Below, piece by piece: positions 18,001 through 21,000 of a DNA stretch of 46,327 nucleotides. The DNA lies in IMG/VR virus record IMGVR_UViG_2802429244_000018, positions 1 through 46,327 of that record, one strand, 5' to 3'. The first letter of the stretch is position 1. Every line of letters starts with the position of its first letter. The position numbers were made by a program. Source of the stretch: a virus. Lineage: Duplodnaviria > Heunggongvirae > Uroviricota > Caudoviricetes.

Positions 18001-21000
18001 ATTTGCGAGGATTTACCCAGCACCACTTTTTTGCAGGAATCGGAGTTTGGAGCTATGCACTTAGAAAAGCAGGATGGCCAGACAACAAGAGTGTCTGGAC
18101 AGGAAGTTGCCCATGCCAACCTTTCAGCTCGGCAGGCAAAGGAAAAGGGGTTGATGACGAGCGGCACTTATGGCCGGCATTCTTCTGGCTTATTGAAAAA
18201 TGCAATCCTGGCATCGTTATTGGCGAACAGGTTGCAAGCGCAGACGGCCTCGCTTGGCTCGACCTTGTACAAACTGACTTGGAAGGTGCGAACTACACCT
18301 CTGCAGGTACCGATATTTGCGCTGCGGGCTTCGGTTCTCCGCACATCAGGCAGCGATTGTATTGGGTGGCCTACTCCAACGACAAATATCAACTTTCAGC
18401 CAGAAACGCGCAGGGGAATTCAGAACCTATCTGGATGCGTGAGACTAGCTGGATGGCAAACTCCTTTAGCGAACGATGCAACAGGTTCAACGCATTGCTA
18501 CAGCGGAAAAGACAAGAGCGGAACCCCAAGAATCTGCTTGAAACTTCCCGGGACGGTGAAGCTATGTACCCATTACCGGTTAACGGCTTCTGGAGAGATG
18601 CAGACTGGCTTTACTGTAGAGATGAAAAATATCGTCCAGTTAGACCCGGCTCATTCCCGATGGTTAATGGCATTGCCAAAAGCTTGGGACGAGGCAAGTC
18701 CACACTGGGAGGAATGGCAAAGCGCAATCAAGATCAGCGAATTATTGGATATGGAAACGCAATCAATGCAGAAGTAGCAACGGCATTCGTGAAAGTTTGT
18801 ATGGAGGTTGTTAATGCTTAGCCTATCCCAATACCTCCAATACCAGAAAGAAAGCGTCGAGCGGGCTTTAACGTGCGCTAACTGCGGTCAGAAGCTGCAT
18901 GTGCTGGAAGTTCACGTGTGTGAGCACTGCTGCGCAGAACTGATGAGCGATCCGAATAGCTCAATGTACGAGGAAGAAGACGATGAGTGATTTCTCTGAG
19001 CTTATTTCCTTCAAAAAAGACAGAGAAGAAATGCGGACTGAATCTGTCTATTACGTTCAACACCGGAATAAACGCTCGGTGCTTGATCAGAATCTGATTA
19101 TTACCGGAGACCTGGCATTCAGAACATATAAGGCCAGCATGGAAATGAAGGATTTCCCTAAATGTGGTTCTGAAAGAGAAGCCGCGTTAAAGCTGGCTGA
19201 GTGGATGCAGAGAATGGCTGCTGCAATTGAGAATTACTGGAGTGAACCATAATGGCTAACCTACGCAAAGAAGCACGCGGCAGAGAATGCCAGGTACGTA
19301 TTTACGGCGTATGCAATGGCAATCCTGAAACTACAGTTCTGGCACATTACCGGATGGCTGGAATTTGCGGAACGGGAATGAAGCCTGACGACCTGATCGG
19401 CGCATGGGCTTGTAGCGCGTGTCACGATGAAATCGACCGACGCACCCATAACCTCGACAACAAAGACGCCAGACTTTACCACCTCGAAGGCGTGATCAGG
19501 ACGCAGGCGATACTGCTGAAGGAGGGGAAGATTAAGTCATGAACGAATATCAGTTTGTGCTTCCATACCCGCCGTCGGTGAATACCTACTGGCGAAGACG
19601 GGGAAGCCAATACTACATCAGCGATAAAGGCCAGAAATACCGAAAAGATGTACAGCAAATAATCCGCCAACTCAAGTTAGACATTTTCACCAAATCACGA
19701 CTCCGCATCAAAGTCATCGCAGACGTTCCAGACTCCCGCCGCCGCGACCTCGACAACATTCTTAAAGGTTTACTCGACTCCCTTATCCATGCCGGATTTG
19801 CGGAAGACGACGAGCAATTCGACGACATTCGTGTAATTCGTGGTGTGAAAGTACCAGGAGGAAGGCTTGGAATAAAAATCACCGAACTGGAGAACGTATG
19901 AACGCCACAATTCAAACGATACCAGAGCTTCTTATCCAGACACGAGGCAATCAGACCGAAGTGGCGAGGATGCTTTCCTGCGCAAGAGGAACAGTGCTCA
20001 AGTACAACCGAGACAGCAAAGGCGAGCGTCACGTAATAGTTAACGGCGTCCTGATGGTCAAACAGGGCAAGAGGGGAAGACGATGAGCATAAGAGAACTA
20101 AACCTCACCAAAGAGCAGCACGAGTGGCTGAATGGCTGGCTTGAACTGTGGGGAGCATGGGTTTATTCAGGTCGTCTGGAAAAGCGCATGAGCAGCGTAA
20201 TAGCGAAGTTCATGGAGAGCGTAGAGCCGGGAAGAGTTATGACAAGGCCAATGTGTAATGATGATGATGGAATGTTGATTTCTCAGGTCGTCGATTCCGT
20301 CATGTGCATTGACAAGAAAGCCTTTGGCATCCTCCTCAGCTACTACGCTCATGGTTCATCTAAGCGAGCAATTGCATCCTACTATCACGCGACTGCAAAG
20401 CCACGCAAGATGTGTGGACGTGGTGGCGAGGGATGGCGAAAACCTTCACTGGCAACCTGTAGAAACGAAATTGACGACATCCTGAAAGCGTCATTATTTG
20501 TTTTATACCAGCCAATGCAAAATGCTTTCAAAATGCGTAAACGTGTAGAGAAAGTTAAGCATATTGCTGTTAAAAGTCTTGACATGCAATTAGCCATTTA
20601 GCCATAATTAGAGGGTAAGCTGCCGTTAGTGACTCTTAAGTTGCAACGGTGGCTTTTTTTATTTGGGTCAGTCGTATAAAGGTCATTACGGAAGGCTGTT
20701 AACCTTCTTATCGTGGTTCGAGTCCACGCTGTCCCGCCAAACATGCTGGTTTAGCTCCAATGGTAGAGCAGTCGCCTTGTAAGCGAATGGGTAGCGGTTC
20801 AAGTCCGTTAACCAGCACCATAACTGAGCCGTAGCCACTGGCTATCCTGAATTCATCAGTGATAGTTACGCTGCGGCCTTCTTTTTTCCCCTTCCCAATA
20901 TAAGAACTACGCAATCCGTTACTGGCGGAGGCGTTGCTATGAAATCAATGGACAAAATCTCTACTGGCATTGCCTACGGAACATCCGCGGGTAGTGCGGG

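Follow-up and report, generated by a model that had tools for sequence, protein, structure and literature searches.

The OLD nuclease of a P2 prophage kills by cutting ThrU, the only tRNA of E. coli K-12 with a UGU anticodon and the one on which ACA depends, and cleavage takes place at paired CNG motifs at nucleotides 28-30 and 40-42 (PMC12445682). Adding host ThrU gives no protection against OLD, whereas a phage version does: the tRNA-Thr of phage 21 ('tRNA-Thr21' of Govande et al. 2025) withstands OLD cleavage in vitro and protects cells when expressed from a plasmid, the rescue by phage Thr tRNA being partial, with colonies that remain small (PMC12445682). Experiments with ThrU variants in the same study showed that resistance needs both a change of the motif and a shortened anticodon stem, the motif change alone being insufficient. 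The Thr(UGU) tRNA of HK446 likewise restores plaquing of OLD-sensitive phages, though a viral Thr tRNA alone does not rescue the toxicity connected with lambda or with recB mutants (bioRxiv 10.64898/2026.07.10.737580). Other tRNA-Thr(UGU) genes, those of T4, Bas32, Bas33 and the coliphage-library 'Thr6', also replace cut ThrU (PMC12445682; bioRxiv 10.64898/2026.07.10.737580).

The locus analysed here carries such a gene as part of a pair. Within the window, by which we mean the whole 46,327-nucleotide stretch of Caudoviricetes DNA that was analysed, a 156-nt segment with one tRNA-Asn and one tRNA-Thr gene matches the tRNA genes annotated in phage 21 (OL657228, 39591-39746) and Sf6 with 100% identity, and the tRNA-Thr gene is also identical to the HK446 copy. 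Taken together, the copies of Sf6, HK446, BTP1 and SfI, all downstream of Q, match those of the window exactly or with at least 98.7% identity, and for SfI the arrangement of Asn(GUU) and Thr(UGU) downstream of Q is in print (PMC3636060). PGAP labels the same sequences tRNA-Asn and tRNA-Thr in E. coli genomes, as do the annotations of phage 21, Sf6, BTP1 and others. The Asn-Thr pair is therefore already known; it is a phage 21-type cassette, present in many lambda-like phages directly behind the late-gene terminator, and has been annotated for decades. Our reading of it, which we consider very probable, is that it encodes two functional phage-borne elongator tRNAs, the cassette of phage 21, Sf6 and HK446, and that its Thr member replaces ThrU cut by OLD.

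In the window ARAGORN calls two tRNA genes and no more, both on the plus strand: a tRNA-Asn (gtt, anticodon GUU) at 20665-20739 and, after a spacer of 5 nt, a tRNA-Thr (tgt, anticodon UGU) at 20745-20820. When the complete window was run with cmscan against all 4227 families of Rfam, both matched RF00005 over the full length of the model, with 61.5 bits (E=5e-11) for tRNA-Thr and 55.3 bits (E=2.4e-9) for tRNA-Asn, the gathering score being 29. The initial annotation had placed Asn-GUU and Thr-UGU genes at 20665-20820 and named tRNA predictors as the way to check them; ARAGORN and Rfam reproduce its coordinates and anticodons and call both sequences tRNAs rather than pseudogenes. The features that it listed can all be read in the sequence, namely U8, G18G19 in the D-loop, U33, T-loops of the form TTCRAGT (TTCGAGT and TTCAAGT in the pair, that is UUCGA and UUCAA) and CCA ends encoded in the DNA at 20737-20739 for tRNA-Asn and 20818-20820 for tRNA-Thr, within the termini GCCA and ACCA. 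Both tRNAs also have A37. The two oddities it had seen in tRNA-Asn are present as well, a U4-U69 mismatch in the acceptor stem, which cmscan marks as non-canonical, and a variable loop of 4 nt (UUAU). Absent from its list was a G27-A43 mismatch, marked by cmscan, at the top of the tRNA-Thr anticodon stem; since G27 and A43 cannot pair, this stem has just 4 bp, while that of tRNA-Asn (GAAGG/CCUUC) has five Watson-Crick pairs.

In E. coli, the identity set for AsnRS consists of G34, U35, U36 and the discriminator G73, and that for ThrRS of G1-C72, C2-G71, G35 and U36. All of the former are present in tRNA-Asn, whose anticodon loop reads CUGUUAA, and all of the latter in tRNA-Thr, whose acceptor stem is GCUGGUU/AACCAGC with A at base 73. 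Both genes thus have what is expected of bacterial elongator tRNAs, in that they exceed the covariance-model threshold, are called by an independent finder and keep the conserved nucleotides. A pseudogene or chance cloverleaf is ruled out by the Rfam scores, the ARAGORN calls, the identity elements and the conservation described below, and we regard the two as genuine genes for tRNA-Asn and tRNA-Thr.

The pair lies, as had been noted from the sequence, between Q and pR' on one side and S21 on the other; all the features of this region are on the plus strand. The antiterminator gene Q, of the Q21 family (20083-20601; Pfam Phage_antitermQ, E=1.3e-25), overlaps the late promoter pR' (20579-20608), which is near consensus in our promoter scan, with 11 of 12 matches, a -35 box TTGACA (20579-20584), a -10 box CATAAT (20603-20608) and a spacer of 18 nt. 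In phage 21 and Sf6, the annotated pR', QBE and transcription start align with this region. The position of the Q-binding element in phage 21 is taken here by direct repeats at 20589-20604 (ATTAGCCA/TTTAGCCA), and late transcription would start at about 20615. The late leader then runs into an intrinsic terminator, tR' (20617-20660), a hairpin followed by U7 with the same sequence as the tR' annotated in phage 21 and Sf6 and a folding energy of -20.2 kcal/mol (z=-5.4; 0 of 200 shuffles were as stable). Only 4 nt separate its U-run from tRNA-Asn. On the right, the cassette is bounded by a conserved hairpin (20828-20877) and a U-run, together 20828-20887, in a stretch (20821-20940) that folds at -39.3 kcal/mol (z=-3.5); the hairpin sequence is common to lambda, HK446 and Sf6, and the element may act as another terminator or stabilise the lysis mRNA at its 5' end. 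The lysis genes follow, with the pinholin S21 at 20939-21154 (PF04971, 8.6e-36), the endolysin at 21154-21651 (PF00959, 9.7e-46) and the Rz spanin at 21636-22085 (PF03245, 1.6e-36). A phage 21-type late-leader cassette has its Asn-Thr tandem immediately behind tR', with Q and pR' upstream of it and the lysis genes downstream, which is the arrangement seen here, and the annotation of phage 21 and Sf6 likewise puts the tRNA-Asn and tRNA-Thr genes directly after pR', QBE and tR'.

The phage L paper described it as not known whether tRNAs of this kind are cut out of the late mRNA or have a promoter of their own (PMC8022706), and for Stx phages a separate promoter has been mapped between tR' and the tRNAs (PMC7547250). 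A promoter of the Stx-phage kind is excluded here by the 4-nt gap and by the promoter scan, which gave no match downstream of pR' and ahead of the tRNAs, pR' being the only one upstream of them. Since no other promoter is visible, expression of the tRNAs should depend on Q-driven readthrough. In the literature we found no reports on expression, processing or aminoacylation of the tRNA-Asn of this cassette.

In lambda, a segment between tR' and S (nt 44786-44952) fills exactly the slot that the tRNA pair fills in the window, and the flanks match on both sides, the tR' U-run on the left and AACTGAGCCGTAGCC on the right. The tRNA pair is an allele of this lambda segment, which is no tRNA itself but a non-coding structured element of two domains that carries no annotation; it has a predicted fold of long helices, and CCA follows its tRNA-like closing helix. 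We found neither a conserved ORF nor an Rfam family for the alternative occupant of the slot; a Hammerhead_1 hit in one allele stayed below threshold (24.7 bits against 34). The conserved hairpin stands 3' of every slot allele examined, including those of lambda, HK446 and Sf6.

How constant is the cassette? The region was found in 1026 of 5426 complete E. coli genomes (~19%), and the identical sequence occurs in E. coli, Shigella and Salmonella phages whose genomes are otherwise mosaic. Among the 66 metagenomic (IMG/VR) copies in our survey, G5>U and C68>A were each found in tRNA-Thr at three loci and jointly keep the 5-68 pair. Of about ten further substitutions in tRNA-Thr, six affect a loop, the hinge or the variable region, three keep a G-U wobble, and two, G1>A and C68>U, disrupt one pair at a single locus each. 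Positions 27, 28, 42 and 43 of tRNA-Thr are invariant in all 66 copies. One locus (L025) has a GAT anticodon plus further changes, and in the related cassettes of ST64T and JLK-2012 the second tRNA is degenerate and is missed by ARAGORN. A three-gene variant also exists, in which the Asn-Thr pair is joined by Gly(UCC).

The invariant positions lie in the part of tRNA-Thr that bears on OLD. Where ThrU has CUG/CAG, the window tRNA-Thr has UCG/CGA, with U28-A42 in place of C28-G42; this altered CNG motif fits tRNA-Thr21 as described in PMC12445682, and together with the stem shortened to 4 bp it gives the gene both sequence features of an OLD-resistant tRNA-Thr(UGU). Judged by its sequence, the window tRNA-Thr is the one published from phage 21 and HK446 as OLD-resistant and OLD-countering. 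It is because those experiments used an identical Thr sequence that we assign it the more specific role of replacing host tRNA-Thr(UGU) cut by OLD. The model of van den Berg, in which loop mutations evade anticodon-loop nucleases, finds no support here, both anticodon loops (CUGUUAA for Asn, CUUGUAA for Thr) being identical to the host's.

How would two tRNA genes behind a late terminator come to stand in for a host tRNA? We suppose that the cassette would be transcribed only from pR', by Q-modified RNA polymerase passing tR', or alternatively at a low level through leakage at tR'. Host tRNA-processing enzymes would excise both tRNAs from the late transcript, RNase P making the 5' ends and endo- and exonucleases the 3' ends, and ACA would be decoded by the phage tRNA-Thr(UGU). 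The exchange of C28-G42 for U28-A42, with the broken 27-43 pair, would make this tRNA a poor OLD substrate, so that the phage copy could replace the host tRNA that had been destroyed. An anti-OLD role fits poorly with the timing, because OLD is triggered by early functions and the tRNAs lie behind tR'; the Q gene itself contains an ACA codon. Interference with RecBCD is a known kind of OLD trigger, and the window phage encodes the anti-RecBCD protein Abc2 (5655-5951, minus strand; PF11043, 3.3e-35), which makes Abc2 a possible trigger. The link is weak because the trigger in the preprint, where it was sufficient, was HK75 Gp33 (bioRxiv 10.64898/2026.07.10.737580).

For tRNA-Asn, the most likely role is to add Asn-decoding capacity. 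At 28-30 and 40-42, host asnT reads CGG/CCG and the window tRNA-Asn AAG/CUU, so that by comparison with the host isoacceptor the CNG motif is gone, while the anticodon stem has its full 5 bp rather than a shortened one; since that stem is kept, we do not claim tRNA-Asn as a member of the OLD-resistant class. To address why OLD, which cleaves multiple tRNAs, has a toxicity specific to ThrU, PMC12445682 compared three tRNAs with ThrU for cleavage kinetics, host tRNA-Asn(GUU) being one of them. Because the host tRNA-Asn has the paired CNG motif and the phage copy does not, tRNA-Asn might also be a cleavage-resistant substitute. A wider reading, which we put forward only tentatively, would then treat the Asn-Thr pair, with its Gly(UCC) variant, as a dedicated anti-tRNase cassette: tRNA-Asn, lacking the motif, would be a second cleavage-resistant substitute, and Gly(UCC) would cover another of the top OLD targets. 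The cassette would at the same time be one interchangeable allele of the post-tR' slot, all of whose alleles might jointly serve the processing or protection of the late transcript.

The initial annotation had expected the tRNAs to be expressed with the late genes and to supply codons for late or accessory proteins, and had named a comparison of codon usage with the host as a check. Taken by itself, this leads to the most serious alternative, pure codon compensation, in which the tRNAs only speed phage translation and nuclease resistance is incidental; we regard it as rather unlikely. ACA is indeed over-used, making up 32.8% of the Thr codons of the window against 12.2% in ordinary and 6.5% in highly expressed E. 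coli genes (p=3e-10), or 18.3 per 1000 codons in the phage against 5.7 per 1000 in ordinary genes (3.2-fold), and SfI has the same ACA bias, 17.3% against 7.1% (PMC3636060). For Asn, total use in the window is higher by about 25-35% (49 codons per 1000 against 40 per 1000), and AAC accounts for 24 of the 25 Asn codons in the capsid gene of phage L (PMC8022706). However, the ACA share is the same in late as in early phage genes (p=0.82), the choice between Asn codons is unbiased, the AAC share being that of the host (p=0.33), and AGA (10.6-fold), AGG (6.8-fold) and ATA (6.6-fold) are all far more enriched than ACA with no tRNA for them in the cassette. Moreover, codon supply would not require the anticodon-stem changes that are invariant in the 66 copies of tRNA-Thr, and surplus host ThrU fails against OLD where the phage version protects (PMC12445682). 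Late co-expression and codon supply are thus a reasonable function that is only partly adequate: the over-use of ACA stands, while the unbiased Asn codons and the stronger enrichment of AGA, AGG and ATA weaken codon compensation as the full explanation.

Considerably less probable is that the cassette is an RNA-processing module, in which tRNA enzymes cut the late transcript and shed the pR' leader and tR', decoding being a by-product. The late or lysis mRNA would then begin at the conserved hairpin, which follows every allele; the cassette is, moreover, a precise allele of the non-coding lambda element with its predicted long helices, and one slot allele contains the hammerhead-like motif. 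Yet a mere RNase P signal would need neither identity elements, anticodons and CCA nor structure-preserving substitutions, and the Thr tRNA works in a decoding-dependent rescue (PMC12445682). It is very improbable indeed that the genes are decaying, non-functional relics, as the U4-U69 mismatch and short variable loop of tRNA-Asn, the uncalled second tRNAs of ST64T and JLK-2012 and the GAT locus might suggest, or compensation for a host tRNA gene hit by prophage integration, as the preprint suggests for HK446 (bioRxiv 10.64898/2026.07.10.737580), given scores far above the Rfam threshold, the identical sequence in mosaic phages of three host genera, the compensatory change in tRNA-Thr and the in vivo function of an identical Thr tRNA (PMC12445682) against the former, and against the latter a late-leader position remote from int/att (integrase 1-1074) and an occurrence with different late-regulation modules in mosaic genomes.

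We return, then, to two functional tRNAs of which the Thr member replaces cut ThrU, and compare the locus with the systems around it. The nearest is phage 21, with the same order, the same 5-nt spacer and the same slot after pR' and tR' and before S21-R21-Rz. It differs in Q, just 84% identical to that of the window across 162 aa, and in the putative Q-binding repeats, ATTGAGCA/AATGAGCA in phage 21 against ATTAGCCA/TTTAGCCA in the window, where this part is as in the Sf6/ST64T type. Elsewhere the window genome is mosaic; with a 24-kb query, the best match to a phage covers 23%. HK446 differs further, with lambda-type Q, pR', tR' and lysis genes, and in Sf6 the S and R genes are lambda-type. 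Since the flanks in HK446 and Sf6 differ from those of the window, the cassette moves independently of both. In Stx phages, ileZ-argN-argO occupy the same general slot, between Q/tR' and stx, but those tRNAs serve rare Ile and Arg codons. Three IMG/VR loci have a truncated copy of the cassette Asn gene joined to an ileZ-like tRNA(CAT). The plasmid prophages RCS47 (P1-like) and Cyrano (SSU5-like) share the order Asn(GUU)-Thr(UGU), with the genes 2-5 nt apart, in a genomic context that differs from that of the window; their Thr genes are 83-84% identical to the window Thr and their Asn genes only 59-65%. With CUG/CAG retained and 5 bp in the anticodon stem, these Thr genes are predicted by the published rule to be OLD-sensitive.

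The Asn-Thr cassette marks this phage as having a late-control and lysis region of the phage 21 type, and we predict that the phage could decode ACA even after a resident P2-like prophage had destroyed the host tRNA-Thr(UGU). The wider interest lies in an arms race over tRNAs among temperate phages, which has already been shown experimentally with this Thr sequence. The tRNA-Thr(UGU) of T4, Bas32, Bas33 and 'Thr6' resembles that of the window in its UGU anticodon, altered CNG motif and shortened stem. While the OLD-resistant phage tRNA-Thr(UGU) genes come mostly from virulent phages with tRNA arrays, the window phage is a temperate lambdoid in which just two tRNAs follow a late terminator.

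Our analysis indicates that the pair read in the initial annotation as tRNA-Asn(GUU) and tRNA-Thr(UGU) indeed belongs to the tRNA family, every defining feature that could be checked being present. ARAGORN calls tRNA-Asn (gtt) at 20665-20739 (+) and tRNA-Thr (tgt) at 20745-20820 (+) and no more tRNA genes in the 46,327-base window, and an Rfam search of the entire window against all families returns full-length tRNA matches at the same positions, with 55.3 bits (E=2.4e-9) and 61.5 bits (E=5e-11) respectively, above the gathering score of 29. Both sequences have the encoded CCA ends, U8, G18G19 and U33 first noted, the T-loops read UUCGAGU and UUCAAGU, and the U4-U69 mismatch and 4-nt variable loop of Asn are seen as described. 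Missing from that list was the non-canonical 27-43 pair (G-A) that cmscan places in the Thr anticodon stem, which matters because a shortened anticodon stem is a published feature of resistance to OLD, a tRNase of P2 prophages. In E. coli the identity elements are G34, U35, U36 and G73 for AsnRS and G1-C72, C2-G71, G35 and U36 for ThrRS; phage tRNA-Asn and tRNA-Thr possess their full sets. With 63% identity between phage Asn and host asnT and 72% between phage Thr and host thrU, neither phage gene is a copy of its host counterpart.

The placement between Q and the lysis cassette also holds. The Q antiterminator gene (20083-20601; Pfam Phage_antitermQ 1.3e-25) lies upstream, belongs to the Q21 family and shares 84% identity with the Q of phage 21; its 3' end is overlapped by a near-consensus pR', TTGACA-18-CATAAT, located by promoter scan at 20579-20608. 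The presumed leader folds into a strong hairpin with U7 behind it at 20617-20660 (fold -20.2 kcal/mol, z=-5.4), a hairpin that phage 21 and Sf6 have in identical form, annotated as tR'. From the tR' U-run it is 4 nt to tRNA-Asn, and a further 5 nt separate tRNA-Asn from tRNA-Thr. Directly 3' of tRNA-Thr, RNA folding gives a conserved second hairpin and U-run at 20828-20887 (+), downstream of which the lysis genes, S21 pinholin, endolysin and Rz, start at 20939. This strong hairpin is kept in lambda, HK446 and Sf6 and bounds the slot behind tR' on its right side, whichever allele is present; the U-run after it occurs only in the S21-type context, hence its terminator-like look. Because the promoter scan found no further promoter-like site between pR' and the tRNAs, their transcription should depend on tR' readthrough.

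Between the -35 and -10 of pR' there are direct repeats ATTAGCCA/TTTAGCCA (20589-20604, +), whereas the Q-binding element (QBE) of phage 21 has ATTGAGCA/AATGAGCA at the matching place; the Sf6 repeats are those of the window, and those of ST64T have one base different. Since the repeats differ and Q identity is only 84%, we suggest that the Q/QBE specificity of the window may differ from that of phage 21, the leader being the same. The phage L paper had argued likewise (PMC8022706).

The existence and identity of both tRNA genes are already known, since the pair has been described in print, and the finding is thus correct and ordinary. The SfI genome paper reports the pair and names Sf6, ST64T, PS3 and phage 21 as carriers of the same genes (PMC3636060), the Sf6 pair is mentioned in this place by the phage L paper (PMC8022706), and the genome announcement of phage 21 counts two tRNA genes (PMC9119081). 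Over its 156 nt the pair shows 100% identity with phage 21 (AJ237660, OL657228) and Shigella phage Sf6, whose annotations place tRNA-Asn and tRNA-Thr right behind pR', QBE and tR', and the Thr gene is 100% identical in HK446, BTP1 and about 30 other records. Of 5426 complete E. coli genomes, 1026 contain the region, with both tRNAs annotated there by PGAP. With all its testable defining features found, the pair is a member of the phage 21-type late-leader cassette; room for new insight lies in the role of tRNA-Asn and in the slot as a whole.

Conservation, like the identity elements above, speaks for upkeep of both genes as tRNAs. An IMG/VR scan for exact copies of the 35-nt tR' hairpin gave at least 119 loci, 66 of them with an intact tRNA pair. 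Across these 66 copies the Thr changes G5>U and C68>A, seen in three loci each, preserve the 5-68 pair, C40>U, A49>G and A70>G retain a G-U wobble, and six changes fall in loops, hinge or variable region, the hinge change A26>G in 18 loci; G1>A and C68>U, found in one locus apiece, each disrupt a pair. Thr positions 27, 28, 42 and 43 are invariant. Variation in Asn consists mainly of singletons, several at the U4-U69 mismatch position. In one related locus (L025) the Asn anticodon reads GAT, alongside other substitutions.

What might the Thr gene do? The P2 prophage nuclease OLD is switched on when phage proteins disable RecBCD, and phage Thr(UGU) tRNAs rescue the cell through their resistance to cutting, for which the CNG motif must be altered and the stem shortened as well (Govande et al., NAR 2025, PMC12445682). 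In that work the phage 21 tRNA, 'tRNA-Thr21', described with a shorter stem and a C28U/G42A pair change, protects cells and resists purified OLD; independently, HK446 Thr(UGU) was shown to let OLD-sensitive phages form plaques again (bioRxiv 10.64898/2026.07.10.737580). The window Thr gene is identical to both tested sequences, with UCG/CGA in place of CUG/CAG and G27-A43 unpaired, and in sequence it fits the published OLD-resistant Thr(UGU) class. Because that same sequence was tested, published experiments support its function as a probable OLD-resistant ACA decoder. The timing, however, is awkward: OLD is triggered early, the tRNAs lie behind a late terminator, and the Q gene itself has an ACA codon, so that anti-OLD action would need leaky readthrough in lysogens or slow OLD onset. 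Moreover, rescue by the Thr tRNA alone is partial (PMC12445682; bioRxiv 10.64898/2026.07.10.737580). The window encodes Abc2, a P22-type anti-RecBCD protein (5655-5951, -; PF11043 3.3e-35), in its early-left region; its candidacy as an OLD trigger is weakened, however, since in HK75 the protein sufficient for triggering OLD was Gp33 (bioRxiv 10.64898/2026.07.10.737580). The same region encodes, next to the N-like antiterminator, an Nmad5 'nucleotide modification associated domain 5' protein (8852-9535, -; PF18757 5.5e-71). Elsewhere, a full-model sRNA-Xcc1 match (RF02221; 2021-2110, -; 65.4 bits, gathering score 53, E=1e-9) sits just upstream of an AntA/AntB antirepressor-like gene (1356-2009, -).

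For phage tRNA-Asn we found no experiments in the literature. Host asnT has the paired motif CGG/CCG where phage Asn has AAG/CUU, host tRNA-Asn(GUU) was one of three tRNAs chosen for OLD cleavage kinetics against host ThrU (PMC12445682), and both papers argue that full escape requires several resistant tRNAs (PMC12445682; bioRxiv 10.64898/2026.07.10.737580). Together with the Gly(UCC) slot variant described below, the lost CNG motif and these arguments make an anti-OLD role for phage tRNA-Asn plausible. Its anticodon stem keeps all five pairs, so that one of the two published resistance features, the altered motif, is there and the shortened stem is missing, for which reason we only infer this role.

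Codon supply, the explanation first proposed, survives less well. Comparing a simple ORF-based gene set for the window with annotated MG1655 genes, ACA makes up 32.8% of phage Thr codons (18.3 per 1000), whereas ordinary E. coli genes reach 12.2% (5.7 per 1000) and the ribosomal-protein, tuf and fus genes 6.5% (ACA difference p=3e-10), in agreement with the SfI paper (PMC3636060). Asn codons stand at 49 per 1000 (late genes 54) against 40 in the host, with the same AAC/AAU split. Over all ORF-called window genes, enrichment relative to ordinary E. coli genes is 10.6x for AGA, 6.8x for AGG, 6.6x for ATA, 3.3x for GGA and 3.2x for ACA. Thus codon supply fits Thr and fits Asn weakly, and it leaves the choice of these two tRNAs unexplained, because AGA, AGG and ATA are 6 to 10-fold enriched and, like GGA, have no phage tRNA despite stronger enrichment than ACA.

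Roughly one in three loci that share this tR' lacks tRNAs and carries instead a 160-300-nt non-coding element (IMG/VR loci L011, L015, L018, L019, L057, L093 and others), which is lambda's own sequence between tR' and S (J02459 nt 44786-44952; 321-487 of our lambda locus, L130). In alignment, lambda has tR', the element and AACTGAGCCGTAGCC...; HK446 has the same lambda-type tR', Asn-Thr and lambda's right flank; and the window has the 21-type tR', Asn-Thr, the same hairpin and the S21 cassette. These aligned flanks show the tRNA pair to be a portable cassette and an allele of lambda nt 44786-44945. The lambda-type element has two predicted domains, each with three or four interchangeable inserts that recombine freely: a long hairpin GGTAAGAGCA.../...TGCTCTTATC (inserts of 31, 39, 40 or 172 nt), and a domain closed by the 9-bp helix GTTGTGSTG/CASCACAAC and followed by N-CCA (inserts of 65, 100, 110 or 198 nt), with a compensatory G-C to C-G change in the closing helix. 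An Rfam search assigns the element to no family, and it has neither a conserved ORF nor an annotation. Within its 172-nt insert, L093 has at 10476-10522 (+) a hammerhead type I-like core, CUGACGAG...GGACGAAAC...GCGUC, for which stem I is plausible; the match is sub-threshold (24.7 bits, gathering score 34, E=0.0016 for a search of 801 nt). On these observations the slot may house RNA elements that are excised from the late transcript or shape it.

Other tRNA alleles occur. Seven to eight loci (L004 (JLK-2012), L016, L048, L096, L098, L107, L115, L116) have a three-gene variant with the same Asn, a Thr with a 3-bp anticodon stem, and Gly(UCC); this Thr, with stem ACUGA/UCAUC and a 3' half resembling host thrU (88% identity), receives no ARAGORN call. 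In the OLD preprint, depletion was strongest for Gly(UCC) and Thr(UGU) (bioRxiv 10.64898/2026.07.10.737580). L020, L034 and L055 join the first ~24 nt of the Asn gene to unrelated sequence, with an ileZ-like tRNA(CAT) behind it; L020 has an STnc100 match ~850 nt downstream. ST64T-type loci (L003, L108) have Asn and a degenerate second tRNA, read as Leu(UAA) in the phage L paper (PMC8022706).

Comparable tRNA clusters are known. HK446 has a tRNA-Asn gene (JQ086372 35097-35171; 821-895 of our locus L129) besides Thr behind its lambda-type pR'/tR', neither gene being annotated in its GenBank record; the OLD preprint speaks of one single Thr(UGU) tRNA in this phage (bioRxiv 10.64898/2026.07.10.737580). 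Of the other systems, two come closest. The ileZ-argN-argO cluster of Stx phages occupies the same region as the window pair but consists of other tRNAs and has its own promoter (PMC7547250). Asn-Thr tandems in P1-like and SSU5-like prophages share the anticodons and order of the window pair, whereas their Thr retains the CNG motif that the window Thr has lost.
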